Shown piece after piece: positions 45,656 through 63,495 of a stretch of DNA of 64,000 nucleotides. Every line of letters begins with the position of its first letter. The stretch's first letter is position 1. This stretch comes from a virus, in IMG/VR virus record IMGVR_UViG_3300042904_000107, positions 1 through 64,000 of that record; one strand, 5' to 3'. Under the pieces are notes generated by a model, which had not been told where the DNA came from, ran no database searches, and was given only the letters and a program-made list of their open reading frames with translations. The position numbers and the translations under genes are program-made.

Positions 45656-46069
45656 TCTTTTCCTTTTCAAGTTTCACGAAATAACGAAGCTGGAGCGAAG
45701 TGTTCAGGGCAGCGTTATAGACTTCGATCAATGCACGTAAAATTGACTCGATTTCATGCGTCAGAACGCGCTGGCCGCTTCTCTCTTCGATCAATTGACG
45801 CACATTGACTAGAACATCTAACGAACCCTTATAAGCTGATTCTAGCGCATTTGGCTCAAGTTCTCCATTATTACGCAGATGGATATCTGCAATTAAAAAC
45901 GTTTTAACCTGGGACCTAACCGAATCAGGAAACTGGATCTTTTCTAGATCTTCTAGAACCAGTTGCCATCCATTCTTTGTTTTCGGTTGGTCACCAATGT
46001 CGAACATACCCATTGGTGCTGCCTCAATTTTTGTGGGGATTGGTACTACAGAATTTGTACTATGCTTCT

Positions 46070-46321: not shown

Positions 46322-47605
46322 TTACCACGGACGAAGTGTTTTTCCGGAAGCAGTAGCGTGGTGAGGTAGAGTAGGTTTATCCTCATTATCCGGTCCATCT
46401 TTTGCGGTCGCGTCAATCTTGGTGTACATTTCCAAGAAGGCGGACTGTGTGTTTTCATCGAATCGGGCAATTGCCAGCTTGAGGGCTTTCAAGCGATTAC
46501 GTCCGAAGATGCTGTAGCCCTTGATAATGTGGATCAAACGGCCGGTGGTGATAGTCTCATCGACACCGCCGTCCTTATGAGTCAGGCGAATGTTTTCTGC
46601 CCACTGGCAGAGCGGCTCGGCGAATTCCGAATCGGCGATCCCAAACTGCTTGAGGTTATTGTTGAGGATTCTCACCTCGATGCGCTTTTCAGGATAACTA
46701 TGTTCGAATGTTGCACCGGTCAGACGCTCTAAAAGAGCGTCATTCATGACGTTTGTTCCGATGTACTTCCCGTCTTCACTGCCGCGACCCTTGGTGTTCG
46801 CTGTGGCAGCAATGTTGAAGCCAGGTCTCGGGTATACCCACCGATTCAGCTTCTTAATGAAGATTCCGTTTCCTTCATAGACGGGCTGAAGGCACATGAT
46901 CTTGTTCGATCCTAGGTCGATTTCATCCAACATAAGAAGGCCGCCTTCGGGATCTTCCATCGCTTTGATAACCGGACCGTCTTCCCAGACAGTCTCACCG
47001 TTGATGAGACGGAAACCACCGATGAGGTCGGATTCGTCAGTCTCGATGGTGATGTTGACGCGATAGAGATTCCGCTTCAGTTCAGCGCACGCCTGGAGAA
47101 TACTCTCCGTCTTACCCGACCGGGTCGGTCCCGTTGAAAGAAACGGAAAGAACAGGCGGGACTTGATGATATCGTAAATGTCCTCGTAAGAGCCGAACGG
47201 AACGAAAGTCGGATTCGGCTTCGGGACCAGCCCGCTATCAGCCGGAACAATCGTGGGAGTAGTGTTCAGTTGTGGTTTTGCCGGCATCTGAATGACCTTA
47301 ACGTCGGTATCTTCGTCATCTTCCTCGGTGAAATCGTCTGGGTCTTCCTCGGGAGCGCCAGGAATCGGCGTTGACAGATCAACGCTCATTTCGGGATAAG
47401 GTAGCTTGTACTTACCGCGACCAAAATGGAATTCAGGGTCTTTAACCCAGGATTGACGTCCGAGTTTGTACTTCGCTCGGATCGCAAGCATCTCCTGGCG
47501 AGTGAAAAATGTTCGGTCGACTCCGTACTCCCTCTTTACCAGTTCAGTGAAGTGTTTCTGCTTGGCTTCGAGTTTGGAATTAACCTTAAGGGATGCAGTG
47601 GCCAT
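46322..47605 (-). CDS. CobS/MoxR-like AAA+ ATPase
   Basis: GPTRSGKT, ETDESDLIGG, LLMLDEID, ATANTKG. Confidence 0.9.
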   Translation of the reverse strand: MATASLKVNSKLEAKQKHFTELVKREYGVDRTFFTRQEMLAIRAKYKLGRQSWVKDPEFHFGRGKYKLPYPEMSVDLSTPIPGAPEEDPDDFTEEDDEDTDVKVIQMPAKPQLNTTPTIVPADSGLVPKPNPTFVPFGSYEDIYDIIKSRLFFPFLSTGPTRSGKTESILQACAELKRNLYRVNITIETDESDLIGGFRLINGETVWEDGPVIKAMEDPEGGLLMLDEIDLGSNKIMCLQPVYEGNGIFIKKLNRWVYPRPGFNIAATANTKGRGSEDGKYIGTNVMNDALLERLTGATFEHSYPEKRIEVRILNNNLKQFGIADSEFAEPLCQWAENIRLTHKDGGVDETITTGRLIHIIKGYSIFGRNRLKALKLAIARFDENTQSAFLEMYTKIDATAKDGPDNEDKPTLPHHATASGKTLRPW

Positions 47606-47643
47606 AAAACTCCTCCAGGAGCCTATGGCCCCTGAGAGTGGCG

Positions 47644-48045
47644 TTAGTCGCCACTCTCCACACTCCCAACCGTCTCGGCGGTCGGCTCCGGATCTTTCTT
47701 CGGCTTGGGAGACTTTTTCTTCGGCGTCTTCGGGACAGTCTTCGTCTTCGGTGCCTCTTCGGGTTCCTGTTCCGTCGGCCGCACCGGTGCGGCATCTTCC
47801 TGGACGAGCGGGAGCTTCGCGAGGACACTCAAATCGTACATACCGCGCGTCGTCCTGACGGACATATTGCGAGTGATCCACCGAGGCGCCGCCAATGTGC
47901 CCAGGAGTTCTCGTGCGGCCTTCTTCAGTTCCGCGCGTTTGACATTGTTGTGCGAATCCCCGAACCGCTCGATCAACTGGGTCAGGAAACGCTTCATTTT
48001 CGGAGTGAGCGCAGTCGGCTGGTGGGCCGGGTTGCCTTTTTTCAT
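47644..48045 (-). CDS. hypothetical protein
   Basis: 133-aa ORF downstream of promoter-like 48081-48109. Confidence 0.6.
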   Translation of the reverse strand: MKKGNPAHQPTALTPKMKRFLTQLIERFGDSHNNVKRAELKKAARELLGTLAAPRWITRNMSVRTTRGMYDLSVLAKLPLVQEDAAPVRPTEQEPEEAPKTKTVPKTPKKKSPKPKKDPEPTAETVGSVESGD

Positions 48046-48128
48046 TTTAAAACCCCTTTCAATTACTGCTTACAGATACAAGGGTACTAAATTGTGGCCC
48101 GAAAGTCAAGCGATTTTAGGCCTTTTTA

Positions 48129-50498
48129 TTAGGAAATTAGCTTGATGAACCTGGTCAATAACACCCGCTGTTTACGCTGCCTAAGTCCATGGTTGCTCAT
48201 TGCGGTGACCAGTTGCGCGTTTGTTACAAGTCCGTTAAGGACTGAGCCTGAGCCTGCCTGAGTGATACGGAGCTTATTTCCACTAGGAAGGATATAAAAT
48301 TCATCATACCCCGTTGTGGTAGAAACAACGAAATACTTGGTATCTAGTTCACTCTTCAACTTATCCTTCTGTGTTTGCAGCACAATATCCTTTGCAGGAA
48401 AGAAATTGCTGAAGGATTCCTCTGGATTTTTACCACTAATGAAGAATCCAACAACTTTCGCTTTCGTCTGTGCTCTCAGGATACGGAGAAACTGGTTAGT
48501 AGTTTCGATGTTATTCGAGGTCAACTCATAATCCTCTCGGTTTACATCATCCCGGAGGTAGATTTTCTCCGAATCGTAACGCATCATACTTGTACCACCG
48601 AATGCGGTCGAACAGTAATGATTGTTAGTAGTCGCCTCTCCGTCGGTAAGGAACGTAACATTCACGTTCTGAATGCGTTTTCGCATTTCATTTACCAAAG
48701 GGATCGCGCATACAATTGCCTCATTCAACGGTGTGCCTCCAAGCAGGTCTGTGCTGGGCAATTGATATCTCCCTGAGGCCCCCGATGCCATTAAAAGGAG
48801 GTTCACACATGCATCGTTGAATTCCTTGACGGTCATCGCACTAGACAGAATCTCACGCAAAGTAAATCCTGCGTAGAATGCATAGCTATCCTTCTCATGC
48901 TCAAAAGCCGTCATATTACCACTAAAACCCCGATATCTATCATCAGGTAATTGCGCTCCGAATGTAAATACTCGGAATGCAATCTGAGCCTTTCGTTGAA
49001 ACATAGCTAGATTGATTAGCTGGTGGATTGTTCCAACGAGGTGCTCGCTCATCGATCCACTCCAATCGATGAACGTGATATTTCCGTGATTCTTACCACC
49101 AGGAACAATAGCGTTCCGGCGCATGATGTCGTCCGTGTAACGGAACTCATGCAAACGCTTCAAATCCAGATCTCCGCTACGGGCATAGGTGGTGCGGGCG
49201 TACTGGTCGGCGGCCTTGTGCATTTCGAATTCTTTTAGCAGCCAATCCACAACTGGTTTGTTTTCGTGTTTGAATGTGTCAAACTCCACTGTATGTTGAG
49301 CCACAAGTGTCGTTTTGTTTTCCTTGTCGTACTTCTCGTAAAAGTCGCGGATCTCTTGATTAACTTGCTTATAACCGACGATGATTTCTGCCAATTTCGG
49401 CTTCGGTATCCCAAGATAGCGAATCGGTAGCGCGTCTTTGTCGCGGAGTTCTTCTTGTTGCTGAGTCCAGGTCTGATCGGTAGTAGACTCTATGGGGCTG
49501 TCGTCCGGTTCATCTTGAGTTCCATCACCATCTTCTGAATTTGTTCCAGTATCAGGCGCTTCATCTTCCCCATCCGGTTCATCTTCGCTTTCTTCGTCAC
49601 CGGCAGAGCCAGGCTCACCTTCAGAATCTTCAGCGTCCTCGGCTTCGTCACCGTCACCGGCGGCATCTTTCTCATCACCGGAGTCTTCAGCGTCTTCACC
49701 GTCTACTTCAGGAGTACTGTCTCCGTCATCGTCATCTGGCATACCTTCAGGCTCAACGTCGGGATCAACTTCCTCATTCTCTTCGTCAGTATCCTCGACT
49801 TTCGACGCCACCTTACGGGCACCCTTCTTGTCGTTCTCTCCCTGCTTCTCGTCCGGATCTTTGTCACCCTCTAGGTCGTCCTGCGCTTGCTGCTCCTGTT
49901 TTTTCTTCTCGGCGCGCTCTTTCTTGGCATAGGCGTAAAGGTCAACGCAAATATTGACCACCTCATTGAAGGTCATCACCTCATCGATTGCCTTGACGAA
50001 TTTCATTTCCTCATCAGAGAATTGAACTCCGGCGTCGTGACCGACTTTAAAATGGATATTCAATCTATCCACAATACCGAAGTCATTGATATTCTTGCCA
50101 TGGGTACCGAAGAAGTTTCGTGCCACGAGTTCTTTGTATCCGCGGACGAACGAAGCCCTGGAACCCGGATAACGTTTCTTTTGCAACTTCTCAATCCTGG
50201 CGTCCTCGACAACGTTAATAAACGTCTTCGCAGCGCCAGGATGTTTAGCGTCAATTTTATTGCAGGCGTCGATGAGCGGCTTGGAGCCTTTGGGAGTGTT
50301 TAAAGCGTGCCCTGTTTCGTGGATTACGAGGAGATCGTAAATGTCGCCCGACATATCTTTCCAGATCGGCAGCGTGAGAATGCGCCGATTCGGATCGAAG
50401 GTGGCGGTACGAGTACCGGCGTGAACGACCGTAATGTTCTCTGTTGCCAGCAACTTGGCTAACTGTTTCTTCGCTTGTACGTTTACGGTTTCGGGCAT
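48129..50498 (-). CDS. CobT-like metallopeptidase (HExxH) + acidic linker + vWA protein
   Basis: HETGH, NVVEDARIE, D/E-rich linker, DWSGSM, GGTPL, LTDGE. Confidence 0.88.
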   Translation of the reverse strand: MPETVNVQAKKQLAKLLATENITVVHAGTRTATFDPNRRILTLPIWKDMSGDIYDLLVIHETGHALNTPKGSKPLIDACNKIDAKHPGAAKTFINVVEDARIEKLQKKRYPGSRASFVRGYKELVARNFFGTHGKNINDFGIVDRLNIHFKVGHDAGVQFSDEEMKFVKAIDEVMTFNEVVNICVDLYAYAKKERAEKKKQEQQAQDDLEGDKDPDEKQGENDKKGARKVASKVEDTDEENEEVDPDVEPEGMPDDDDGDSTPEVDGEDAEDSGDEKDAAGDGDEAEDAEDSEGEPGSAGDEESEDEPDGEDEAPDTGTNSEDGDGTQDEPDDSPIESTTDQTWTQQQEELRDKDALPIRYLGIPKPKLAEIIVGYKQVNQEIRDFYEKYDKENKTTLVAQHTVEFDTFKHENKPVVDWLLKEFEMHKAADQYARTTYARSGDLDLKRLHEFRYTDDIMRRNAIVPGGKNHGNITFIDWSGSMSEHLVGTIHQLINLAMFQRKAQIAFRVFTFGAQLPDDRYRGFSGNMTAFEHEKDSYAFYAGFTLREILSSAMTVKEFNDACVNLLLMASGASGRYQLPSTDLLGGTPLNEAIVCAIPLVNEMRKRIQNVNVTFLTDGEATTNNHYCSTAFGGTSMMRYDSEKIYLRDDVNREDYELTSNNIETTNQFLRILRAQTKAKVVGFFISGKNPEESFSNFFPAKDIVLQTQKDKLKSELDTKYFVVSTTTGYDEFYILPSGNKLRITQAGSGSVLNGLVTNAQLVTAMSNHGLRQRKQRVLLTRFIKLIS

Positions 50499-50506
50499 GA
50501 AACTAC

Positions 50507-50535
50507 ATCATATCATGTTTAGGCCGAATTGTCAA
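50507..50535 (-). promoter_or_regulatory. sigma70-type promoter
   Basis: TTGACA-17-TATGAT with TG. Confidence 0.75.
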
Positions 50536-50561
50536 ATTTTTGGCCCTTTATATTGTGTGTA

Positions 50562-51578
50562 TCAGATCGCTCCGTGTGGGAGACTCTCTTGATATCCGTT
50601 GGTTGTTATCTGGACAAATTCAGAATTCTCTCGCAGTTCTCGGAGATTCATAGCTCCACAATAGGAGAATCCAGATTTGACACCTTCTACCAACTGTCGG
50701 ATGATTGGTTCGGCATGTCCCTTATATCGGACAAGGGTTTCTTCTCCCTCAACATAGCGGGCATGTCCAACTGCGTCGTATTTCTGACCGTATGAGGCAG
50801 ATCCTCTGTAGATCTTGTATAGGTTGCCATTGGACTTGATTACGTTACCTGGAGCTTCAGCCGTTCCTGCAAGAATACTTCCGAGCATTACAGCATCGGC
50901 ACCTGCGGCCAGAGCCTTCACTATATCACCAGAATTCTTGATACCACCATCGGCAATTAAAGTAACATCAGGAATAACTTTACGGATTTGGAAAATACTT
51001 TCAAGGGTAGGTAGGCCGCAACCTGTAACAATTCTCGTGGTGCATTGACTGCCGCTACCAACACCCACTTTGAATGCTAGATTGTCGTCTCCACCACCTA
51101 AAATGTGTAGTAGTCTCCAAATACCTTCAGCCGTAGCATAGTTCCCAATAATTAGAGGAACAAGACCGAATGTTTTACGAATCTCAACCACAGTATCAAT
51201 GACCGTTGGTGAATCGGCATGCGCCACATCAATACAGTAACCAGCTATACAGAACTTAATCTCCTGCAATTCTCGAATACGGTCAATGCCTAATTTTGAG
51301 CCTTCAATCGATACCCAGACGGACTCAAATGGGTGTTTGGAGATAATCTCTTTCTGCTCCTCAACATCCATCATACGGTGAAGGATACCAAACCCTCCCA
51401 CCGCACGCATGGACTCCAACATCCTGCTTTCTGTCACTGTTGACATATTGGCAGAAATGAATGGAAGCTTATATTCTTTACCTGAAATTGTGGTAGAGAG
51501 ATCCACTTCGTCTCTGCTACCACCATAGGTCTGCTGCGGAATCAAAAGAACATCATCGAATGATAATGCCAAATTCAT
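50562..51578 (-). CDS. IMP dehydrogenase / GMP reductase family
   Basis: SFDDVLL.P, KVGVGSGS.CTTR, IADGGI, AVMLGS.LAG. Confidence 0.9.
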   Translation of the reverse strand: MNLALSFDDVLLIPQQTYGGSRDEVDLSTTISGKEYKLPFISANMSTVTESRMLESMRAVGGFGILHRMMDVEEQKEIISKHPFESVWVSIEGSKLGIDRIRELQEIKFCIAGYCIDVAHADSPTVIDTVVEIRKTFGLVPLIIGNYATAEGIWRLLHILGGGDDNLAFKVGVGSGSQCTTRIVTGCGLPTLESIFQIRKVIPDVTLIADGGIKNSGDIVKALAAGADAVMLGSILAGTAEAPGNVIKSNGNLYKIYRGSASYGQKYDAVGHARYVEGEETLVRYKGHAEPIIRQLVEGVKSGFSYCGAMNLRELRENSEFVQITTNGYQESLPHGAI

Positions 51579-52130
51579 TAATAAATTGCCTTTTCTAGAT
51601 CTTGGAGTGCCTGTTCTACGGCTTCAGTATGTTCCTTTGGCAACTCGTCGTCTTCATCGAGCCCCATGGTTTCTTCACCGGTGTATTGTAATGTGTTCAG
51701 GCAATCACCAATACTGTAGATCAAATCGTAAAGTTGGTTGCGTGTCATTAGTTTATGGAAACATCTCCTTCAATTTCCAAGTAACCATTGGTCTCAGTAT
51801 TTACAATCTCAACCACAGGTACAACAGAACTATCGTAGCCATACCCTGTTGTTAGTGTGGTGAATTCAATTTCCAAGTTTAGCTCTTTTGCAATCTCTCT
51901 GGATCTGCGGAGCCATTCATCATACCGCTCTTGAGTACTCATCAAAATTACCTCAAATTGTCTACTTTGTTGGAAGCAACTATAATGCATGACAAATCCC
52001 ACCCACTCATCCCATGAGTTTTTGTGGTATTTCATGACCAACTCTTCGTCTTCCTCTGTAATGTCACGCTCACACCAGGAGCAATAATCATCACAGAGGT
52101 GCTTGACGATGAGTTGTGTTACGTGGACGC

Positions 52131-53840
52131 TCATTTCTTTTTGGTCTTCTTTGTTGCTGGCTTCTTAAAGACGAAGATAAGTTCAGTCTTGTGCCACTTC
52201 CCGTTCACTTTGCAGAAGTTCTTACAAGTTGGTTTACCATCTTCACCAACGCGATTAGCACCAGGCATATTTGCTAGAACCATCTTTTCAACACCAACAT
52301 ACTCAGCACCTAGAGACTCTAGAATAGCCCTGCTATCCTGTTCTAGTGGGTAGTACTGGTCACCGACCTTAATGTCTGCAATGTTCCACAGTAGATAGCG
52401 GTCAGGTTTCAGATTATTATACGCATTTTCCAGAGTTGGTCTAAGGAATCCATCACGCCACTGGTCATAGAAAGGAAACTTCTTAAGGGACTGGGTATCA
52501 TCTTCGGAATATCCCTCACGATTAAAATACGGAGGACTAGTGAATACGAGGTCCAGTTTGTTTTTGTATTGCTGGAAATCAGGGTGCTCACCAATGACCT
52601 CGGAACCTTGAGTGAAAACGTGATAGGTATGAGGATCATAGCCAAACCGCTTAAGTGACTTATTAACAAAGTCAGCCAGATACTCATAGCGAGTACGGCC
52701 CAATTCCTCAATAAAATTATCTGTATTTGGATCCGTCCCGATGTAATGGACATGCCTGTCATCCATGACTGTCATTGCACCGGCAATTCGTCCACCCCAT
52801 CCGGATGACGGGTCATAAATGTTGATTACGTCTTGGCTCTTGCAATGATCCGTGTATTTTTCGTACAGGTACTTAGCAATCATTGGTGGGAAGTTCACCG
52901 CTACTTGAATGTAACCGATCTTGAACGCGGTGAAGCCAATCGGGAAAATACGAGTGTCTTTCTTGAAAAGACGAATATGGTACTGTTCACTGTCGTTTAG
53001 GTCTTTGTTCAGAGCACCTTGCCACTCAACGTCAGTTCTTTCAGGATCAACACCAACCAGATTGGCAGTGTTTTCGGGAGTGATGATTCCTTGCTTTGCG
53101 AGATCGAGTATCTCCGCTTTGCTGAGCCACATGAACTTCGATGCGTCAACCGAAGTATATCCCGTTCCTACTTCACCATCTTCAGGTGGTTCAACGCGAC
53201 TGAGCCAGAAACCGTAATCCTTAAAGATCGTGGTGCGGTACGTATTGAATGCGTCTACCCACTGTCTACCAGTCTCGGCGCTTTCAACCACCGCTAGTTT
53301 ACTGCGTTCGGGTAATGACCAAGAGTAACGATAGAACGAATCGCGTTTAAAGTGGCGTCTACAACCTTTGACCATTCGGTTGCGGAACCGTTCGTTAGCA
53401 AATAGATCATAAACAGCATATCCATTAAATGTCCCCTCGTCGTCTACTTTCGTCTGGTAATTTATCTTCGCCTTCATCATGGTCGGGAAGAATTGATTAA
53501 CACATGCTCCCAGATAACCATTATTGATGATAACGTTCGCCTTGCCATCCATCTCATCGACGTACGGTTTGGTACCGCCAGATTTTGCTTTGTAGAGTGA
53601 GATTGTCTTTCCTGGAGTACCACTCATTTCACGGAACTCCTCATTCATCTCGCGTTCATCCATACCAGCGAGGGGAGGAATCCCGTGTATGTCCCAAACT
53701 TCTAATACACGGGATCGCATATGGTCGACCCACTTCTCAAACTCCGCATCGGTCATTACCAATAATTCGGAAAATTTTGCGTTTACGGAAGGGTCATCAA
53801 TGATTTGGTCGTTGCGCGACCAGTAGAATTTTTCTGACAT
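52131..53840 (-). CDS. SAM-dependent DNA amino-methyltransferase
   Basis: YDPSSGWGGR SAM motif, FTSPPYF catalytic motif. Confidence 0.85.
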   Translation of the reverse strand: MSEKFYWSRNDQIIDDPSVNAKFSELLVMTDAEFEKWVDHMRSRVLEVWDIHGIPPLAGMDEREMNEEFREMSGTPGKTISLYKAKSGGTKPYVDEMDGKANVIINNGYLGACVNQFFPTMMKAKINYQTKVDDEGTFNGYAVYDLFANERFRNRMVKGCRRHFKRDSFYRYSWSLPERSKLAVVESAETGRQWVDAFNTYRTTIFKDYGFWLSRVEPPEDGEVGTGYTSVDASKFMWLSKAEILDLAKQGIITPENTANLVGVDPERTDVEWQGALNKDLNDSEQYHIRLFKKDTRIFPIGFTAFKIGYIQVAVNFPPMIAKYLYEKYTDHCKSQDVINIYDPSSGWGGRIAGAMTVMDDRHVHYIGTDPNTDNFIEELGRTRYEYLADFVNKSLKRFGYDPHTYHVFTQGSEVIGEHPDFQQYKNKLDLVFTSPPYFNREGYSEDDTQSLKKFPFYDQWRDGFLRPTLENAYNNLKPDRYLLWNIADIKVGDQYYPLEQDSRAILESLGAEYVGVEKMVLANMPGANRVGEDGKPTCKNFCKVNGKWHKTELIFVFKKPATKKTKKK

Positions 53841-53844
53841 GCTG

Positions 53845-54384
53845 CTAATATGTAGGAAATTTTAATTGCTTGTCTTCGAAGAGAATTTCTTCTAGGATCT
53901 TTCTAGTATCTCTGAAGTTGGTAAACAAGATCGAATAGCCACCAGCTTCATTCCACTGAAGGCAATTCTGAGCATTATCATCAATGAGAATGTTACTTTG
54001 TCCATTGGTGACCGCCCAATGCTTCTTGTGCGACTTGCGCGTAACCACGGTAACTTCGTCTTTATCGATATAAAGATTCCGTTCACACCATTCGTACTTC
54101 TGTGGTAAACTCTCAACGACCTTGTCGCTCATCGCCGTGAGGACTTCCACCTTCTGACCCTTCATCATATGGTCATAGCGAAGATAGTTCCATAACCACT
54201 GACCATCCTGAAGCCAAGGTAACGTCGCATAGAACCTAGGCGTCCTTTTGGTCAAATCCATTTTCTGCTTTTGTGTGAGTTCCTTATACCCACCTTGGAA
54301 ATCCCAATGTTTTTTGGCTAGGCGATATACTTCACCTTCCCAGTCAACTAGGACACCATCCATATCAACGTAAATTATACTCAT
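53845..54384 (-). CDS. HAD 5'(3')-deoxyribonucleotidase-like
   Basis: IYVDMDGVLVD, LIDD..N...W...GG. Confidence 0.85.
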   Translation of the reverse strand: MSIIYVDMDGVLVDWEGEVYRLAKKHWDFQGGYKELTQKQKMDLTKRTPRFYATLPWLQDGQWLWNYLRYDHMMKGQKVEVLTAMSDKVVESLPQKYEWCERNLYIDKDEVTVVTRKSHKKHWAVTNGQSNILIDDNAQNCLQWNEAGGYSILFTNFRDTRKILEEILFEDKQLKFPTY

Positions 54385-54393
54385 CCAGTGGGC

Positions 54394-54579
54394 TTAAGAG
54401 CCCACGTTCCAGAAAAGGAATTTCTTTTTGGGAGTTTCCGGCCGAATTAATCTAGGAAGCGTCAATGCATCTACTTCCCATCCTTCCCATTTGACAACGA
54501 CAAACGGAAGATCAATCGAAATAATTGATCCTCTTGCATAGTCTGTCATCACACGTTGGCCAATTTTAAGCTCCAACAT
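54394..54579 (-). CDS. small protein ending in a copy of the upstream gene's C-terminus
   Basis: PKKKFLFWNVGS vs PKKKVLFWNVGA. Confidence 0.5.
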   Translation of the reverse strand: MLELKIGQRVMTDYARGSIISIDLPFVVVKWEGWEVDALTLPRLIRPETPKKKFLFWNVGS

Positions 54580-55369
54580 TCCAAAATAGGACTTTCTTTT
54601 TGGGTTTTGCTCCGATTAGGACGTGTTCCCAGGCTTTTGCGTCGTAATTGGGAGACGAAGGGAAAGGCGGGCGCTTATCTTTCTTGCATTCTTCCGCAAA
54701 CTTCTGCGAATGGCGAATAATTGTGGCTCTACCTTGCTCTGCGGGTGAGAGAACGTGCCCTATACTTACAGCATAACACTTTGCGTCAGGAAAAGCAAGT
54801 TGCAAACCACGGTTAAGGACACCCGATCCCGCAACTGACCAAATTTCGTCAGGTTCGAAATCTAGAGTCCGCGCAACCTTTACAACAGATCCAATAACTG
54901 CCGGATCTCCGCTGAACTCCACGAGTCTTCTGTGTTGAGGGTCTTCGGCGACATATTTTCTGGCTCTTCCTTGCGTTACAGTCAACATTCCCATATTGAC
55001 TTCGTGTATGTCAACACCTAATTGTTTAGCCTTCTCAGAGCTAGGATGCAGTTCCTTACCCTTGGCAATGAAGACTGTGGCCTTCTTACCATACTTCTTA
55101 CAGACGGCACCAAGGCCTATCTGACCGTAGCCCCATCGAGAACCACCGCCATAAACCCACTCCTGTACGGGTTCTTTCTGCACCATGTAATCGTAGATGC
55201 GCTCTTTGGTTCCTCCAGTTAGGAGGTCATCGCGCACAACATAGATGCCTTCGTGCTTCTCCACAACAGGTGGTGGGTTTGGGTCGGTCCAGTCTTTTAC
55301 CTTACTCAGATACCACTCAGGAGATCCTGGCTCGCCTTCGTCTACTTCAAAGAAATCTTTCCAACTCAT
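54566..55369 (-). CDS. fold-type II PLP-dependent enzyme (ACC deaminase/cysteine desulfhydrase-like)
   Basis: VVRDDLL.GGTK.R, W.VAGSG, YDAKAW, FWNVG. Confidence 0.75.
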   Translation of the reverse strand: MSWKDFFEVDEGEPGSPEWYLSKVKDWTDPNPPPVVEKHEGIYVVRDDLLTGGTKERIYDYMVQKEPVQEWVYGGGSRWGYGQIGLGAVCKKYGKKATVFIAKGKELHPSSEKAKQLGVDIHEVNMGMLTVTQGRARKYVAEDPQHRRLVEFSGDPAVIGSVVKVARTLDFEPDEIWSVAGSGVLNRGLQLAFPDAKCYAVSIGHVLSPAEQGRATIIRHSQKFAEECKKDKRPPFPSSPNYDAKAWEHVLIGAKPKKKVLFWNVGA

Positions 55370-55595
55370 CGGATATCCCTTACAATCTGAGCAATCGTTT
55401 CTTCAGGAGCTTCCAAATCACCTTCTTCTAGGAAGAAAGTGTAGAAGCGTCCTTCATGATTGATCTGGAGCGCTAATTGCTCAGACCATCCTTCATCGTC
55501 ACTACCATATCGGCAGAACGTAATCGCATGATGGCATTTGGGCGCTGGAGGCATTTCCTCTTCTAACCGCTTCAGGAAATTGAGGAGTTGTTCTC

Positions 55596-56072
55596 TCATT
55601 TCATGAACCTCTCTACCGTGTCGGCACAATCATAGACGAAGATCGTCCCTGGGATTGTTCCGTTTGACCAAACAATCTTACCTGCATCCTGAAACCCAAC
55701 TGCTTTATGCCACTTGATGGACTGCTCGTTGCTGTCATGTACGCAACCGAACACGCGACCAGGTTTCACATATTCCTCAACAAACTGTCGGAAGAACAGG
55801 AACGGTCCAAGCGTATTCTTCTTATTGGTGCTTAGAATCTGGTGAATATTCCACTCACCGCGCGAGTACTGATACTCACCGACACGACCACCGCGCTTCA
55901 TCTGTTGAATTACCGCAATGGTATCGTTGCCCATGAATACTTGTCCCGCTTCGATACTGCGTACCAAGTAATCTTTACGGACATACAAGAACTTTCCTTC
56001 TTTCTTGTACAACTTAAAGCCGTCCTGAATCGCTTTCAGGTCGTCCTGCGTTGCTACGTGTAACTTAGACAA
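55596..56072 (-). CDS. GNAT-like acyltransferase
   Basis: IHQI, V..SN..SI.WH..VGF C-terminal GNAT motif. Confidence 0.6.
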   Translation of the reverse strand: MSKLHVATQDDLKAIQDGFKLYKKEGKFLYVRKDYLVRSIEAGQVFMGNDTIAVIQQMKRGGRVGEYQYSRGEWNIHQILSTNKKNTLGPFLFFRQFVEEYVKPGRVFGCVHDSNEQSIKWHKAVGFQDAGKIVWSNGTIPGTIFVYDCADTVERFMK

Positions 56073-57087
56073 ATTTCACCTCGTGATATAGTTTAGGACA
56101 TAGCTTCTCAAATTCTACATCATCAAGGAAACTATCGGGCGTCAATCCTGTCAAGAACGTAACAAACGATCCGTTCTTTTCCGTTTTCTGGTAATTGAAA
56201 TGGAGTGTCCGTGTAAACTTGAAAAGTTCCTGTAAAATTGCGTATTCAACCCGGCGGCTAAAGGCTCTGCAACTCAAGCAGAAATGGTGCAAAGACATGT
56301 AGTTGTGGAGAGTGGTATTGAACATGTGTTCTCCAGTAATTACCGCAATGACACCCAAAGGACCGAAGCGATCCTCGTAACTAACCACATAACCAAAGTT
56401 ATGACCGATCGAAAGCAGATATTCCAGTCGGTTCTTCTCTGTAATCCATCCATTCAGATTGAACTGGTTGGTTTTCTTGATTAGTTCCACTGCTCTATCA
56501 ATGTTGTTTTCATTGATAGCTGAGAAGGTAAGCTTGGCATTCAAGCTCTGGTAGAATTCCTCAGGATCTTTTGTGCTCAACTCGGAATTGAACCGCACAT
56601 TCGAGCGAATGCTTTGCATCCGAAGCTTGTCTTCCTGGGTCGCTTCGCGCTTCGGGAAGAAATAGCGGACGGACTTCACAAAATTCGGGAAATCTTCCTC
56701 ATTTTTAGGGAATTTGAGAACTTTGATACCTGGATGCGAATCGAAGACTTCTGCCAATTCAAAATCGGAGTCATCGATAAACAGCACGTCATCCGCAGAA
56801 ATATTCCATGTTTTCAGAATGCGTGCCACAGATTCCGACTTTGGACCCCAATTTGCCTCGACTGGAAAGAAATGATCTAGTCCTATCTTAGGTTTTAGGA
56901 TTTCAAACGGAACCTTAACGTCTTCATTCTTACTGGCAATAGCAAGAAGAATTCCTTCAGTTTCCAATTTTAGTAGGAGTGTCTGATACTGTGCGTACAT
57001 TCCTTGAACTGTTAAGTCCTCTTCCTCGGATTCTAACCAGATTCCACCCCAAAGTGTTTTGTCTAAATCGGTAATAATACCTTTCAT
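56065..57087 (-). CDS. FkbH-like protein (HAD IIIC + GNAT; glyceryl-ACP transferase)
   Basis: DLDKTLWGG, LAIASKN, NW.PKS, FIDDS.FE, KTNQFNL, DRFG.LG, LSCRAF.R. Confidence 0.9.
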   Translation of the reverse strand: MKGIITDLDKTLWGGIWLESEEEDLTVQGMYAQYQTLLLKLETEGILLAIASKNEDVKVPFEILKPKIGLDHFFPVEANWGPKSESVARILKTWNISADDVLFIDDSDFELAEVFDSHPGIKVLKFPKNEEDFPNFVKSVRYFFPKREATQEDKLRMQSIRSNVRFNSELSTKDPEEFYQSLNAKLTFSAINENNIDRAVELIKKTNQFNLNGWITEKNRLEYLLSIGHNFGYVVSYEDRFGPLGVIAVITGEHMFNTTLHNYMSLHHFCLSCRAFSRRVEYAILQELFKFTRTLHFNYQKTEKNGSFVTFLTGLTPDSFLDDVEFEKLCPKLYHEVKFV

Positions 57088-57317
57088 GCTGCCTCCACTG
57101 CTTCAAGGAAGGCATCGAAGGATGTTAGCTCGGCGATCTTCTCTAGATTGAGTACATTACCGAATTCATTCTCAATGGCTACTACCAATTCAACAACGCG
57201 CACAGAATCCCAGTCTCCAAGCGTGTCTTCACTCGCAGAAAGTACCGTTTTGTCTGTCAGATTGGGGAATACCTGTTTGAAGCAGGTAATAAGACGTGAT
57301 TTTGTCGATTTCTTCAT
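57084..57317 (-). CDS. acyl carrier protein
   Basis: WDSV..V.LV.AIE.EF phosphopantetheine Ser motif; coupled to FkbH. Confidence 0.85.
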   Translation of the reverse strand: MKKSTKSRLITCFKQVFPNLTDKTVLSASEDTLGDWDSVRVVELVVAIENEFGNVLNLEKIAELTSFDAFLEAVEAA

Positions 57318-57551
57318 ATTCCAAACATATTCCCGCGCTTAAGTTATTATTTTAGCACAACTTAGCGCGGGAAAGCAACTGTCAATACTACTTAGGCCTC
57401 GTTATATTCCCAGGTTCCGTCGGCGCGAAGAGTCAAAAGACCATTGAAAAGTTCCAAGTCAAGCCGCAATTGTTCATCCGATTGGGTCAATCTGAAATCC
57501 CAACCCTCGGAGACCATAACATTCACAATATTATTAAGTTCTTCCGGCATT

Positions 57552-57809
57552 TTAGAAAATTCCTCGTCCTTTCAACGCGATTGAAGCATTTGCAATGTGC
57601 AAAGCGCTCCGAACTCTAAGAATAGCCTCGTTCCTGTCAGCACTTGGTGGGCAGGTAACCAAAATTACTTGCGCGAAGTACTTGGCAGCTTCACGAAGCG
57701 ACTGGTAATTCGCAATTTCTTCAGGTGTTGGAGCATGGTATCTAAAAACATGATCTAGATCCATCTCTTGTTGTACGGTCAGGTCGTTAATCATAACTAA
57801 CGGATTCAA
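57552..57809 (-). CDS. Acb2/Tad1-hairpin-like small helical protein (candidate nucleotide sponge)
   Basis: F.YHAP....Y..LR..AK.FA..I...CP.S.DR..A........ANASIA. Confidence 0.55.
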   Translation of the reverse strand: MNPLVMINDLTVQQEMDLDHVFRYHAPTPEEIANYQSLREAAKYFAQVILVTCPPSADRNEAILRVRSALHIANASIALKGRGIF

Positions 57810-58151
57810 TATCCTCTTCGGTGAATTTCTTTCGATCTCGGGTAAAATTTTGAAAAGTTTCTAAAAGGATCTTCTTACCGTCTTTTCTACGCAAATAAAA
57901 CGGTTGAAAATTCTCGGTAAATCCTCGCTCAACAAATCCTAAATCGGAAAGAGCGCATTTTGGATCAGTCTTTCGATATTCACTCAGTACTTGGTAAGCA
58001 GAATCCATTGCTCTCCAAACGGCTCGCAAATCATTGAGATCAATTTCAACAGTCCCGGATAATTTCCGAGTCTCTAACTTTGGCTCAACAAGTTTGGCAA
58101 CATACTCCAAACTTTCAATTGACTGAATTGTTCTATTCCACGTATATGGCA

Positions 58152-59867
58152 TCATTGCTCCATAATTGAGAAGCCGCGCTCCTCAACAAATTTGATCGTG
58201 TTTTGGAACTTGTCGGTGAATACATCACCCTTCGGTGAAATTACAAACATGTTCACGTCTTTGGCAAGCGCATTAATCAGCTTCAGGAAGTCATCGATAC
58301 CATTATCGTCAAGAGCCGACTCAAAGATTTCATCCATGAGTAGCAGATTGGTGTTGGCACTATTTCTCAACTTCGCAATTTCTCGCCATGTAAACATCAC
58401 CGCAAGGTCAATACGAAGCTTCTGTCCTTCTGAAAGTTGGTAGTAGATGCGCTCTTTGCTACCGCGAATGTGGATTGTCTCTTTGAAGTTCTCGTCCAAC
58501 GTGAAATTCGCAAAGAAGTCCATTGCGGCAAGGTACTTGTTGACGTACTTATTGATAATTGGAAGGTATTGCTTGATAATCTTCGTCTTAATGCCTGTGT
58601 CCTTCAGCATTACCGCGACAATATCCAAATAGTGTTTGCGGGACGTTAGATCGTCGCGCGTCTTAACCATCTCTCGGAGAGAATCTTCAAGTTTTACCAA
58701 CTTGCTTTCATGCTCCGCTGAGTCTCCACCGCTGTCTCGGAGATCATCAATCTCCCTTTGGACAGTCTTGATATACTTTTCAATTGCGTGGATTGAAGAC
58801 TTAATCTTGTGGATCTTCTGATTCCGTTCGTCTACAGCTTTAAGAACGGTATTAATCTCTTCAAGTCTCGATTCCGACGATTTTAGGTCTTCTTGAAGTT
58901 TACTGAGAGCAGTTTCGATCTCCACAACCAATTCCTGTTTGCGCGTAAGCATATCATTCTTAAAGTCTTCTGCAATGCTCTGCTTACACGTAGGACACTC
59001 GCTTGTCTCCTCAAAAAAGTGGAGTTCTTTGTTTGCCTTCGATTTGTTACTCTCTAGCTTATCAGATGCTTGTTCCAGACCTTTTATGCGCTTTTTCACC
59101 TTGGCCAGGTCTTTAATGCGATCCTCTAGATCTTGAATTTCATTTTGGAGATCTAGAATCTCAGCGTCGTATGTGGATCTCTGACCTTCATTGTCTGCGA
59201 TTGTATCCTTCTTCAACTTGATTGCTGCCGCATTATCCGCTTTCAGCTTTTTCAGGTAAGCGGTGACAAGCGCAACCTTCTCTTGTTGGAGTTCGATTTG
59301 ATTCGAAAGTTGGAGATACTCTTCTTTCATCTCCTGAACGCGAGTCTTGAGAACTTGGTTCATCGAAGAGAAGATTTGGATATCGAGTAAATCCTCAATA
59401 ATGGTCCGTCGGTCGGCCGGTGGTAGTTGCATGAAGGGCACGAACGATGCACTGCCAAGTACAACAATCTGGACAATCGTCTTCTTATTACACTTGAGGA
59501 TATTTTGTTCCAGATACTTTTGGTAATCGCGGGCGTTCGCATCCTGGTTGATGATGGAATTATTCTTGAAGATCTCGAAAGTACGCGGGCGCATACCACG
59601 GCGAATTTTGTAATTTGTGCGCCCGATTTGAAATTCCACTTCGACCATCATCCCTTTATCGTTCGTATCATTAATTAACTGAGGAACAGTTATATTACGG
59701 AATGGTTCACCAAAAAGAACATATACCAGCGCATCAAGTAGTGTTGATTTGCCGGAACCATTTTTCCCCATTATCAAAGTTGTTGGGGATTGATCTAGTT
59801 GAATTTCTGTCCACATATCACCGGTCATTAAAAAATTCTGCCAGCGTATGCGTTTAAAAACAATCAT
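58152..59867 (-). CDS. 46: gp46 recombination ATPase (Rad50/SbcC-like)
   Basis: GKNGSGKST, CPTC zinc hook, LSEGQK, MDEIF. Confidence 0.95.
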   Translation of the reverse strand: MIVFKRIRWQNFLMTGDMWTEIQLDQSPTTLIMGKNGSGKSTLLDALVYVLFGEPFRNITVPQLINDTNDKGMMVEVEFQIGRTNYKIRRGMRPRTFEIFKNNSIINQDANARDYQKYLEQNILKCNKKTIVQIVVLGSASFVPFMQLPPADRRTIIEDLLDIQIFSSMNQVLKTRVQEMKEEYLQLSNQIELQQEKVALVTAYLKKLKADNAAAIKLKKDTIADNEGQRSTYDAEILDLQNEIQDLEDRIKDLAKVKKRIKGLEQASDKLESNKSKANKELHFFEETSECPTCKQSIAEDFKNDMLTRKQELVVEIETALSKLQEDLKSSESRLEEINTVLKAVDERNQKIHKIKSSIHAIEKYIKTVQREIDDLRDSGGDSAEHESKLVKLEDSLREMVKTRDDLTSRKHYLDIVAVMLKDTGIKTKIIKQYLPIINKYVNKYLAAMDFFANFTLDENFKETIHIRGSKERIYYQLSEGQKLRIDLAVMFTWREIAKLRNSANTNLLLMDEIFESALDDNGIDDFLKLINALAKDVNMFVISPKGDVFTDKFQNTIKFVEERGFSIMEQ

Positions 59868-59874
59868 TTTTACC

Positions 59875-60333
59875 TCAATCCACCCACGTTCGATTATGAA
59901 CTATAGACCAGATAGTATGTTGCGAAACTTTGTATATTCTAGATAATCCTCGTTGCGTGTTTCCCTTAGCGTACATATTTCGAATATCCATAATATCTCG
60001 CTCCGTTAATTTCGAATTACCTGCTCGCTCCCGCCGCAAGTGGGCTTGTCTTCCTTTACTATTTCGGTCAGCAATGTTATCAGCATCCGAACCTAAAAAG
60101 AAATGAAAAGGATTAACACAGGAAGGAGTATCACATTTATGGCACACCCTTAAATTATTTGGAATTTTACCAAAATGGATTTCCCAAGAAACTCTATGAG
60201 CCCGCTGAGATCTTCCTTCAAACCAGAACATCCCGTAACCTTCTTTACTATCTTTAGCACCGGTCCAAATCCAACATGAATCTGTCTTATCTACTTTGGA
60301 AAAGAACCGTTCGAGTAACGGTTCTTTTTTCAT
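59875..60333 (-). CDS. HNH homing endonuclease
   Basis: CWIWTG, AHRVSW, VCHKCD.P.CVNP.H. Confidence 0.9.
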   Translation of the reverse strand: MKKEPLLERFFSKVDKTDSCWIWTGAKDSKEGYGMFWFEGRSQRAHRVSWEIHFGKIPNNLRVCHKCDTPSCVNPFHFFLGSDADNIADRNSKGRQAHLRRERAGNSKLTERDIMDIRNMYAKGNTQRGLSRIYKVSQHTIWSIVHNRTWVD

Positions 60334-61765: not shown

Positions 61766-62851
61766 TTATCGATCCATATGGCTTGCCTCTACGTACAACA
61801 AGCGTAATTCCTCTTTGATTTTCGCTTTGTCCGAGTCAATTTCAAGACCATCCACATACTTGTTCAGGATCGTTAGTGTATCTTCTGCCATGTCTACCAC
61901 AACCTCTGTGTCGCTTTCATTAAGACTGAGATCCTCTTCAATCTTTACATCGGCGGGGTTTAGAGAGAATAGCTTTTCCAGATACTTCTCAAAATAGTAT
62001 GGGTTGGTCCGGTTTGCAACAATGACTTTGACATATGTACCTGAATACTTTTCTGTCAATCGCTTTAGTAGTGTTCCTAGTTCTTTATTCTTATCATCAT
62101 AAAACAACTTATGGAACATTCTATATGGGTTCTGGATGAACTCGACGTTATCTTTACCAGGTTCCCAGACATGAAACCCGCGTGGGTCGTTCACGTCGGC
62201 AAAAGTCATCTCATATGGTGCACCAAGATAATGGATGTTACCTTCGTCTGACTTGTGGTGATAATGTCCTGAACAGACTAGATTGAACTTATTGAATATT
62301 TCTGGATCTAGACCATGTTCGGCTTTTTGACCACGCTGCATGATGAAGCCTTTTAGCTCCAAGTGACCCATTAAGATTTTGGCGTCAGTATTTTTGATTG
62401 CAGCGAGAGATTGCTCCATATTGGCAGTATTCATCCACGGCATCAGGAGAACTTTGGTTTCATCAAACAAAACCTCTTCAGGTTCTGTTAATACCATAAT
62501 GTTTTCCATATCAGAGAATAACTCCTGCATGGAGTTTACTTCATTGGTATTCTTAAAGAATGTGTCGTGGTTTCCCACTGTGACAATTACTAGTATACCC
62601 AACTCCTTCAATCGTGCCATAATTCTAGTGCGGACGATGTTCAGAGTGTAAAAATTAATATACTTTCGGCGGTCGGTAAAATCTCCAAGATGGATTAGAA
62701 TTTTGACGTTGTTCTCAATGAGCCAAGGAAACAAAACTTGCTCAAAGAACCGCAGGAAGTAGTCATGGAATACCATGCTATCGGAGCGAGCACCTAAATG
62801 GGTATCTGTGATAATTGCCACTTTACCGTTATTAGTGGTAAAGGTCCTCAT
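61766..62851 (-). CDS. 47: gp47 recombination nuclease (Mre11/SbcD-like)
   Basis: TDTHLG, HLGD..DRR, GNHD, GHLE, SGHYH. Confidence 0.95.
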   Translation of the reverse strand: MRTFTTNNGKVAIITDTHLGARSDSMVFHDYFLRFFEQVLFPWLIENNVKILIHLGDFTDRRKYINFYTLNIVRTRIMARLKELGILVIVTVGNHDTFFKNTNEVNSMQELFSDMENIMVLTEPEEVLFDETKVLLMPWMNTANMEQSLAAIKNTDAKILMGHLELKGFIMQRGQKAEHGLDPEIFNKFNLVCSGHYHHKSDEGNIHYLGAPYEMTFADVNDPRGFHVWEPGKDNVEFIQNPYRMFHKLFYDDKNKELGTLLKRLTEKYSGTYVKVIVANRTNPYYFEKYLEKLFSLNPADVKIEEDLSLNESDTEVVVDMAEDTLTILNKYVDGLEIDSDKAKIKEELRLLYVEASHMDR

Positions 62852-63495
62852 AGTTCGATTGGTAGGGGATCAACAGGCACCATGAATTTTTCAATGCCTG
62901 GATCTTCAATTCTTTTTCGCGTGCGTGTGGACTCTTTCTTTTTGGCTCTCTTCTTCTCTTCAAAATTCTTGACGATATCACTCTTATTTTCTCGGATGAA
63001 GTCGATATATGTGTTCTTATATCCACCATCATCTCCGGTTTGAGTGGAGAAGAATTCCATGGCGCCTTCCAAAGACTTTTGCCTGATATAGGAGTGCTCT
63101 TCCTCTTTCGCAATACGGCGGAGGAAAGCATAACCCATTAGCTGTGTGAAATATGCAAATGGATTATTGGACTTTTCAGGATCAAAGTTCTCCAAGTACT
63201 TAATGGCATTTTCAATCGCATCACCGACCATTTCCTCTCGGAATGTGTAGTTGATGAAATTGGGTTTATAGGAAAGATGCTCCGCGATCTTTAGCAGGCA
63301 TTCTCCAATAAACTCGTAATCTGAAGTACGAGGACGTTCGAACTTAGGTAGGTCTTCTTTCTTAACCCCTTTGGCAAGAAGCTTTTTACATTCTTTCAGC
63401 CATTTTGCTTTGATGGGTAATGCAACTGGAAGGTAGCATTTGAAAGCCTCTAAGAAAGCTTTGTTGTCCACGTAATGATTGGCTTTACGTGACAT
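62848..63495 (-). CDS. 55: gp55 late-transcription sigma factor
   Basis: HYVDNK.F, NFINYT.REEM..D.IEN, NFDP.KS.NPFAYFTQ. Confidence 0.95.
   Translation of the reverse strand: MSRKANHYVDNKAFLEAFKCYLPVALPIKAKWLKECKKLLAKGVKKEDLPKFERPRTSDYEFIGECLLKIAEHLSYKPNFINYTFREEMVGDAIENAIKYLENFDPEKSNNPFAYFTQLMGYAFLRRIAKEEEHSYIRQKSLEGAMEFFSTQTGDDGGYKNTYIDFIRENKSDIVKNFEEKKRAKKKESTRTRKRIEDPGIEKFMVPVDPLPIEL

Follow-up and report, generated by a model that had tools for sequence, protein, structure and literature searches.

A methyltransferase-anchored gene cluster downstream of gp46 in a T4-like phage is a candidate cassette for DNA base hypermodification

We analysed a gene cluster that lies between gp46 and gp45 in IMG/VR virus record IMGVR_UViG_3300042904_000107, a T4-like myovirus contig of 97,144 bp whose first 64 kb are the stretch of DNA studied here, called the window. 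The window genome, G000, was rated 53% complete by CheckV, and the sequencing runs that hold the contig are soil metagenomes. On the minus strand, the T4 gene order runs gp55, gp47, gp46, cluster, gp45 and gp44. The cluster itself runs from an acyl carrier protein (ACP) through FkbH, the GNAT-fold protein p158, the small protein p87, a pyridoxal phosphate (PLP) enzyme, p61, an NT5C-type nucleotidase and MT569, which has an S-adenosylmethionine (SAM)-dependent amino-methyltransferase fold, to p128, p56 and a GMP-reductase-like gene (Table 1). From ACP to the GMP-reductase-like gene, adjacent genes overlap by 1–34 nucleotides (nt) or are set apart by a gap of at most 9 nt. An earlier note, made from the sequence alone, had described an ACP, an FkbH, a GNAT, a PLP enzyme, a HAD nucleotidase and a methyltransferase as overlapping or abutting genes in the interval between gp46 and gp45. 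This layout was borne out, on the minus strand, and profiles, motifs and folds agreed with all six gene identities, to which p87 and p61, omitted from that list, have to be added. The cluster is real and under purifying selection: positions 50000–60000 recurred, collinear, without indels and at >99% identity, in a soil metagenome of another study, and of the 38 single-nucleotide polymorphisms listed, 37 were in genes, with 34 synonymous and 3 non-synonymous. When the DNA of the cluster was compared with 50,697 phage records, no match was returned.

Table 1. Features of the gp46–gp45 cluster and flanking T4 genes, in window coordinates
Feature	Coordinates	Strand	Description
gp55	62848-63495	-	
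gp47	61766-62851	-	
gp46	58152-59867	-	
ACP, 77 aa	57084-57317	-	Dedicated FkbH partner; profile and predicted phosphopantetheine site Ser38
FkbH, short form, 340 aa	56065-57087	-	HAD-IIIC phosphatase domain and C-terminal transferase domain
p158, GNAT-fold acyltransferase	55596-56072	-	Predicted acyl transfer from ACP to an amine
p87	55366-55629	-	Small protein between GNAT and PLP genes; no family match
PLP enzyme, compact fold-type II, 267 aa	54566-55369	-	M6 gp52 homologue
p61	54394-54579	-	Probable recombination relic; C-terminus copies that of the PLP enzyme
NT5C-type 5'(3')-deoxyribonucleotidase, 179 aa	53845-54384	-	Local insert
MT569, 569 aa	52131-53840	-	Conserved anchor; ~310-aa N-terminal domain and C-terminal SAM-dependent amino-methyltransferase fold
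gp45	44963-45670	-	
gp44	43248-44195	-	

MT569 carries a motif I, DPSSGWGGR, and a motif IV, TSPPY, and residues D343, P344, G347–R351 and S435–P437 were invariant in 20 homologues of 48–83% identity. For N6_N4_Mtase (PF01555), which has a cut-off of 26.7 bits, its score was 25.6 bits, or 31.3 bits when the genome was searched. The AlphaFold2 (AF2) model had a pLDDT of 86.6, and its structural neighbours, the best of which are weighed below, also include an aminopropyl transferase. Residues 1–310 have no assignable family: Atlas scores were at most 0.82, and in structure searches the methyltransferase domain outweighed them. Metagenomes contained at least 2099 full-length homologues, many on contigs of 100–180 kb, and IMG/VR held 580 MT569 loci. 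Among cultured phages no full-length MT569 was found, only the catalytic core: Staphylococcus phages of the Twort-like group have it between DnaB and SbcCD, and Bacteroides phages have it too. MT569 is the sole N6_N4 methylase in genomes G000, G001 and G002. We based neighbourhood counts on the best 80 of the 580 IMG/VR loci, and in 68 of these MT569 lies downstream of gp46. The conserved anchor of the cassette is therefore MT569 and not the carrier arm, and the methyltransferase is no mere downstream addition.

The link to DNA comes through the PLP enzyme. It matched PALP at 22.5 bits and phrog_7093 at 3e-34, and the profile of its family matched CysK, serine dehydratase, TrpB and ACC deaminase at 5e-5 to 2e-3; K55 is invariant and the GSGT phosphate loop is conserved. 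Against gp52 of Pseudomonas phage M6, the family profile aligned over its full length (219 columns; hhalign probability 99.0, E 3.2e-18), and pairwise BLASTP of the two proteins gave 2e-9. We found that K55 aligned with the lysine of SFSKIRG in M6 gp52, that the C-terminal signature PPFP..YD.KAW..FWN(V/I)G is common to the two proteins, and that both are labelled phrog_7093 'threonine dehydratase'. It has been established that M6 gp52 and ViI gp226, as pure enzymes, decarboxylate thymine-bound amino acids in polymeric DNA, and that the PaMx11 gp48 acetyltransferase acetylates the resulting amine on DNA (Lee et al. 2021, PMC8989533). Judged by this homology, the PLP enzyme of the window would decarboxylate a base-appended amino acid.

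Fusion proteins point in the same direction. The PLP family comprises 1071 representative clusters, and 8 of 10 long members tested carry an N6_N4 DNA-methylase domain, located before, after or around the PLP domain; other domains fused in long members are ParB_N, Asp/Arg-hydroxylase and YunG. One such protein is gp1 of the cultured Erythrobacter phage vB_EliS_R6L (R6L; KY006853.1; L002 / L172), which combines a ParB domain, methylase motif I, a PLP domain and an SCPPY half. Its PLP domain interrupts the methylase between motif I and SCPPY, and the SCPPY half aligns to MT569 residues 427–561. This PLP domain was missed in the published annotation, and the original R6L paper described gp1 only as a CcrM-like methylase (PMC5463345). 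Together, the M6 gp52 homology and the methylase and ParB fusions clearly favour DNA as the target. R6L also encodes a separate ACP, ORF32 (PP-binding, 1e-10), beside RusA and unknown genes, a neighbourhood that was uninformative. In the slot before MT569 (L056, L068, L086, L036) and in P0250, P0261 and P0282, an Asp/Arg beta-hydroxylase-like protein is encoded together with the PLP gene or forms one protein with the PLP and methylase domains, which suggests a hydroxylated variant of the side chain.

At the other end of the cluster, ACP scored 18.4 bits against Pfam PP-binding, below the cut-off of 20.8. A profile of four phage ACPs (A5) matched acyl carrier proteins in the PDB, with 2lml at E 3.6e-11 and dozens more, and Ser38 was invariant in the four phage ACPs and aligned to the DS(L) serine of the PDB proteins. 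FkbH matched TIGR01686 at 205.9 bits (cut-off 146.65; profile positions 4–315 of 323; 206.1 bits in the genome search). The HAD motif I DxDxT is present as D7-L-D9-K-T11, and S272-C273-R274 was invariant across aligned homologues (sets of 9 and 6); in work on OzmB, the conserved C-terminal cysteine of FkbH reportedly carries the glyceryl thioester. The FkbH start overlaps the ACP stop by 4 nt, and an adjoining ACP of this type was present at 47 of 54 FkbH loci. On these sequence grounds we regard the ACP–FkbH pair as a real, dedicated module and FkbH, by family membership, as a predicted glyceryl-ACP synthase. Scanning IMG/VR with an FkbH alignment returned four distant loci, L004–L007, none with a PLP, GNAT or MT569 homologue and only L004 with an ACP. 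A weak sign that FkbH and MT569 homologues share contigs was that their longest contigs were equal, at 45434 (P0004/P0127) and 20272 (P0003/P0129).

The assignment of p158 comes from its fold, as the protein has no sequence family and no PHROG match. Its AF2 model had a pLDDT of 84, the top 40+ Foldseek matches in the PDB were all GNATs at probability 1.0 and TM 0.6–0.75, and its Atlas score was 0.96. A word-based search found only 4 homologues, a tblastn search of the 50,697 phage records found nothing except two partial Xanthomonas phage matches, and scans of viral and metagenome contigs with single proteins and with the p158 alignment gave no matches. Homologues of p158 abut MT569 in 25 of the 80 relatives. 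We predict from gene neighbourhood that p158 takes acyl-ACP as its donor, a GNAT and an ACP arm being found together in 3/3 cassettes. A specific kinship of p158 to PaMx11 gp48 was considered and rejected, the relation being at the level of the GNAT superfamily only (hhalign 64%).

Three further genes lie within this set. The nucleotidase matched Pfam NT5C at 25.5 bits and phrog_2643 at 1.6e-25, and no homologue was found in any of the 80 related loci; because of this absence we regard it as a local insert and not as the pathway member that the earlier note had made it. For p61 there was no family match, and, as read from the translations, its final 11 residues (KKKFLFWNVGS) repeat the C-terminal end of the PLP enzyme (KKKVLFWNVGA). 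That the nucleotidase has no counterpart and that p61 copies this C-terminus suggest a later insertion between the PLP gene and MT569. p87 had no Pfam, PHROG or NCBIfam match and no homologue in the 80 related loci.

To describe the slot between gp46 and MT569 we considered the 67 MT569 loci that have 1.2 kb or more of upstream sequence. Of these, 25 have no GNAT and no PLP gene, 22 a PLP gene only, 18 a GNAT only and 2 both; at the GNAT-only loci the stop of the p158-like GNAT overlaps the MT569 start. GNAT and PLP genes stand together only where there is a carrier-protein arm, at L009, at L010 and in the window, and in none of 65 arm-less loci. L009, a complete 179.7-kb genome, has the order gp46-PLP-GNAT-ACP (LDSF motif)-SDR-AMP ligase-MT569, in which an AMP-ligase/SDR/ACP arm takes the place of FkbH and the GNAT, PLP enzyme and MT569 are kept. 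L010, a 98% complete genome, has gp46-ACP-FkbH-TylF O-methyltransferase-MT569-PLP-GNAT, and L119, a 2.5-kb metagenome contig, has ACP-FkbH-TylF O-methyltransferase-MT569. The co-occurrence of ACP–FkbH with the downstream genes that the earlier note had called for was thus found in relatives, with MT569 at L010 and L119 and also with the PLP enzyme and GNAT at L010. We then placed these neighbourhoods on a quick maximum-likelihood tree of MT569 that took in every row with an uninterrupted match and 1.2 kb or more upstream. PLP adjacency changed at least 8 times, 6 of these forced by supported branches, and GNAT adjacency at least 3 times. One clade of 9 rows (support 99) contains the window, L009 and L010; its other 6 rows lack both genes, 5 of them with empty slots and the sixth, L008, with two unrelated open reading frames (ORFs). 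Since the full cassettes share a clade with these rows, we conclude that the cassette is gained or lost as a unit.

These observations led us to propose that the cluster is a post-replicative nucleobase hypermodification cassette whose target is most likely the phage's own DNA, a proposal in which we place about as much belief as doubt. The cassette probably builds an undescribed acylated side chain on DNA bases. Of the glyceryl-ACP-fed modification put forward in the earlier note, the module is supported by the FkbH–ACP pairing and the link to DNA by the M6 gp52 homology and the fusions, while the chemistry, the target base, the acceptor atom and DNA as the target are what we infer. In a first step MT569, as a SAM-binding protein with an (S)PPY motif, would place an amino-acid-bearing group on a base; this motif is typical of transferases acting on exocyclic amino groups. 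The simplest donor would be the 3-amino-3-carboxypropyl (acp) part of SAM, because no 5-hydroxymethyl-pyrimidine route is encoded. The thymidylate-synthase-like hydroxymethylase family PF00303 was absent from G000 and from three relatives that are 98–100% complete, in a search that as a control was positive in 10 of 14 reference genomes. No Pfam or PHROG match to 5-HMUDK kinase or aGPT-Pplase was found in the cluster or in sampled slot proteins, a result that does not include a genome-wide search by name. With no classical entry route, another enzyme must install the amino-acid group, and MT569 is the only conserved candidate. In a second step the PLP enzyme, going by its homology to M6 gp52, would decarboxylate the appended amino acid to a primary amine. 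FkbH would load glycerate from 1,3-bisphosphoglycerate as a thioester on host-primed ACP, and the GNAT would finally move the glyceryl group from ACP to the new amine, a step with a precedent in PaMx11 gp48, which N-acetylates aminomethyl-deoxyuridine in DNA. Relatives with MT569 only, PLP only or GNAT only would make shorter versions of the same side chain, the nucleotidase and small ORFs would be later inserts outside the pathway, and the likely purpose would be to shield phage DNA from host nucleases. A SAM-derived acp group would also explain the frequent fusions of PLP decarboxylase and methylase and, by analogy with wybutosine, the Asp/Arg-hydroxylase-like and small methyltransferase genes in relatives.

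A narrower version of this proposal, in which MT569 puts the acp group of SAM on an exocyclic amino group (cytosine N4 or guanine N2, at GG/CC steps) and the product is decarboxylated to aminopropyl and capped with glycerate, we consider rather improbable. Under it, a 1.2-kb GG/CC-free unit of the phage genome would be the one stretch that cannot be marked. This unit, at 90349–91593 of G000 and 26 kb past the window end, spans 1246 nt without GG or CC, the next longest gap in the rest of the genome being 65 nt. In G003, the FkbH-bearing genome of L010, positions 152124–153508 hold GG/CC-free stretches of 728, 252 and 175 nt and two ORFs without Gly, Pro or Trp. The units of G000 and G003 have no detectable homology to each other, and no such unit was found in G001, which has MT569 without PLP or GNAT, or in G002, which has the AMP-ligase arm. 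Across these four genomes this is a weak hint of an FkbH-type mark aimed at GG/CC steps; counts of 4-mer palindromes gave no clear pattern tying protection to GG/CC. The CTAG value was 0.44 in G001, where this palindrome is avoided, and 0.98 in G002 and 0.92 in G003, which have full cassettes and do not avoid it. TGCA, likewise, was avoided in G001 (0.53), with values of 0.88 in G002 and 0.77 in G003. In these three genomes the CTAG and TGCA values fit stronger protection by the full cassette.

Several observations weigh against a cassette that modifies DNA, some of them by favouring another explanation. MT569 stands without PLP or GNAT genes at 25 of 67 loci and so may be an ordinary methyltransferase, and the gp46–MT569 slot also holds peptide deformylase, DnaB, homing endonuclease and sugar-nucleotide enzymes, unrelated genes that make adjacency alone weak evidence. 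To the DNA-acting acetyltransferase PaMx11 gp48, p158 shows a general GNAT likeness only. Phosphopantetheinyl transferases of PF01648, which covers the Sfp type, are absent from G000 and three complete relatives, so a host enzyme would be needed to prime the ACP. The closest FkbH homologues are bacterial, at ~575 aa, and those bacterial FkbH loci that we fetched belong to polysaccharide clusters in which a hexapeptide acyltransferase and UDP-glucose dehydrogenase come after an ACP. At L009 and L010, glycosyltransferase and capsule-type genes (GT2, GT10, Caps_synth, FkbM) come right after the cassette, and other relatives have GDP-mannose dehydratase, DegT and glycosyltransferase genes in the same slot. 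These FkbH relatives and glycan genes are what would be expected if ACP, FkbH and the GNAT (and perhaps the PLP enzyme) served to glyceroylate an amino sugar or another metabolite for virion or host-surface glycans, MT569 being an ordinary DNA methyltransferase that borders a hypervariable island. We think this unlikely, as the PLP enzyme belongs to the family of the DNA-acting decarboxylase M6 gp52 and that family is fused to DNA-methylase and ParB domains. Moreover, GNAT and PLP genes stand together only with an ACP arm and always beside MT569, no GT2 was found in the 97 kb of the window genome, and the phage has a GNAT where bacteria use a hexapeptide acyltransferase.

The MT569 structure raises the question of a different substrate. 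The four best structural matches are the tRNA N2-methylguanosine (m2G) methyltransferases Trm11, TrmN and Trm14, at Z 14.3–14.7, about 1 Z unit over generic class I methyltransferases (about 13), which leaves room for an RNA target and tells against DNA, though with so small a margin the two groups are effectively tied. The (D/N/S)PPY motif is, moreover, common to RNA m2G and N6-methyladenosine (m6A) methyltransferases and to HemK-type protein methyltransferases. That MT569 and its partners modify a base of host or phage RNA (tRNA, rRNA) or a protein amide nevertheless seems to us quite improbable: Pfam places the MT569 domain in the N6_N4 DNA methylase family, the family of the PLP partner is fused to ParB_N DNA-binding domains, the proven PLP relatives act on DNA, and MT569 is located in the replication and recombination module of T4-like and Twort-like phages. 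Least probable, finally, is the absence of any joint pathway, with independent auxiliary genes gathered in a hypervariable island downstream of gp46; while slot content is highly variable and includes plainly unrelated genes, the nucleotidase and p61 show insertion or recombination inside the cluster, and the 18 GNAT-only loci make up about two clades, so that counts overstate independence, pure coincidence is unlikely given that PLP-methylase fusions occur in unrelated phages and metagenomes and that the pattern is all-or-none, with three different carrier-protein arms each accompanied by GNAT and PLP genes against 0/65 arm-less loci, and given also that PLP adjacency was gained or lost at least 6–8 times and that reading frames overlap throughout the cluster.

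The surroundings of the cluster hold further features of note. Just before ACP, and after a small Acb2/Tad1-like gene, comes a 74-nt spacer. This spacer (57318–57391, minus strand, before ACP) contains TTGACA, a TGCTTT box, TAAAAT and an 11-bp inverted repeat, CCCGCGCTAAG / CTTAAGCGCGGG, and by its sequence may be a candidate promoter or regulatory hairpin for the cassette. A promoter and terminator scan inside the cluster gave no signal above chance, and no RNA dataset is listed as containing the cluster. The Acb2/Tad1-like gene, just upstream of the cassette (57552–57809, minus strand), encodes an 85-aa protein with an Acb2/Tad1 hairpin domain (PF24729, 3.1e-9, above cut-off) and is a candidate sponge for cyclic-nucleotide immune signals. 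Between gp47 and gp46 lies a gene for a 152-aa HNH_3 homing-endonuclease-like protein (59875–60333, minus strand), and at L008 a NUMOD3 endonuclease immediately precedes MT569; mobile nucleases may drive the shuffling of the cassette. At the downstream end of the cluster, the GMP-reductase-like gene (50562–51578, minus strand) belongs to the IMPDH/GMP-reductase family (PF00478, 8.6e-84) and scores under every NCBIfam equivalog cut-off. The 8 closest relatives keep it as well, with a few kb between it and MT569 upstream, and this conservation suggests that a guanine nucleotide role may be tied to the region. Further on (46322–50498, minus strand), a CobS-like ATPase (phrog_249 'porphyrin biosynthesis', 8e-93) is paired with a 789-aa phrog_459 'peptidase', and this pair is conserved downstream in relatives.

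In the searchable literature we found no prior description of a phage FkbH, of an ACP with hypermodified DNA, of aminocarboxypropyl DNA modification or of a ParB-methyltransferase-PLP combination. To our knowledge, the known phage DNA hypermodifications start from 5-hydroxymethyl-pyrimidines or 7-deazaguanine, and we know of no nucleic-acid modification pathway so far in which the acyl donor sits on a dedicated carrier protein. What would be new here within phage DNA hypermodification is the class of the entry enzyme and, in the window, a carrier-protein-fed acyl donor. The cassette points to a different entry route, one that joins a SAM-dependent amino-methyltransferase fold to a decarboxylase family proven on DNA. 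Uncultured T4-like phages with the methyltransferase anchor number in the thousands, and many other phages have the PLP enzyme as a fusion with domains of this kind; the carrier protein of the window comes from bacterial glycan or polyketide chemistry. If MT569 does transfer the acp group of SAM and the GNAT caps the product from FkbH-loaded ACP, no earlier DNA modification would have depended on a carrier protein or been derived from the acp part of SAM. A cassette of this kind would widen the known chemistry of natural DNA, make sense of a conserved gene of unknown role beside gp46, offer new enzymes for site-directed DNA decoration, and account for phage resistance to restriction and possibly to sequencing or cloning. 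Erythrobacter phage R6L, as a cultured relative of the PLP-methylase core, is a possible laboratory model; the PLP-methylase pair is also present in Microcystis phage Mae-JY30.

Four known systems bear comparison with the proposed cassette. In phage Mu, Mom is a GNAT-like enzyme that makes N6-carbamoylmethyl-adenine. As proposed for p158, a GNAT-fold enzyme there decorates an exocyclic amino position of phage DNA and so evades restriction; Mom differs in that it works alone, without a methyltransferase, PLP or ACP partner, and no sequence link to p158 was found in the PHROG and tblastn searches described above. In the wybutosine and acp3U modifications of RNA, TYW2 transfers acp from SAM, TYW5 hydroxylates and TYW4 caps. 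There, too, an enzyme of class I methyltransferase fold puts the amino-acid part of SAM on a base, as MT569 hypothetically would, and the side chain is then tailored; relatives of the cassette have Asp/Arg-hydroxylase-like and small methyltransferase genes or fusions. The substrate here is presumably DNA, however, and the RNA pathways have nothing that corresponds to decarboxylation or to carrier-protein-fed acylation. The loading of glycerate by FkbH and ACP is known from polyketide methoxymalonyl-ACP and tetronate pathways and from polysaccharide and flagellin-glycan loci (PMC7489565; cj1302, PMC7099621). The window pair resembles these bacterial modules in an FkbH that scores above the TIGR01686 cut-off and has the HAD motif I and conserved cysteine, and in the dedicated ACP that adjoins it; the TylF-type O-methyltransferase after FkbH in L010 and L119 echoes the O-methylation of glycerate units. 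It differs from them in that the phage FkbH, at 340 aa, lacks the ~230-aa N-terminal domain of the ~575-aa bacterial forms, in that the phage ACP is upstream of FkbH whereas the bacterial ACP comes after it, and in that the phage consumer is a GNAT beside a DNA-methylase-like gene and not a polyketide synthase, FabH or hexapeptide acyltransferase. The fourth comparison is with the thymidine pathways of M6, ViI and PaMx11 (Lee et al. 2018, PMC5889632; Lee et al. 2021, PMC8989533). These use a dUMP/dCMP hydroxymethylase, which is absent here (PF00303, 4 genomes), whereas the proposed installer in the cassette is a SAM-dependent amino-methyltransferase fold with an SPPY motif; their acyl donor is acetyl-CoA, whereas the one proposed here is made by FkbH on a dedicated carrier protein; and the GNAT of the window is related to PaMx11 gp48 at the superfamily level only. 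What the proposed cassette would share with them is a base-appended amino acid in polymeric DNA that is sculpted after replication, a PLP enzyme that is a full-length homologue of M6 gp52, an acyltransferase that caps the amine as PaMx11 gp48 does, and a combinatorial mixing of genes across metagenomic phages.

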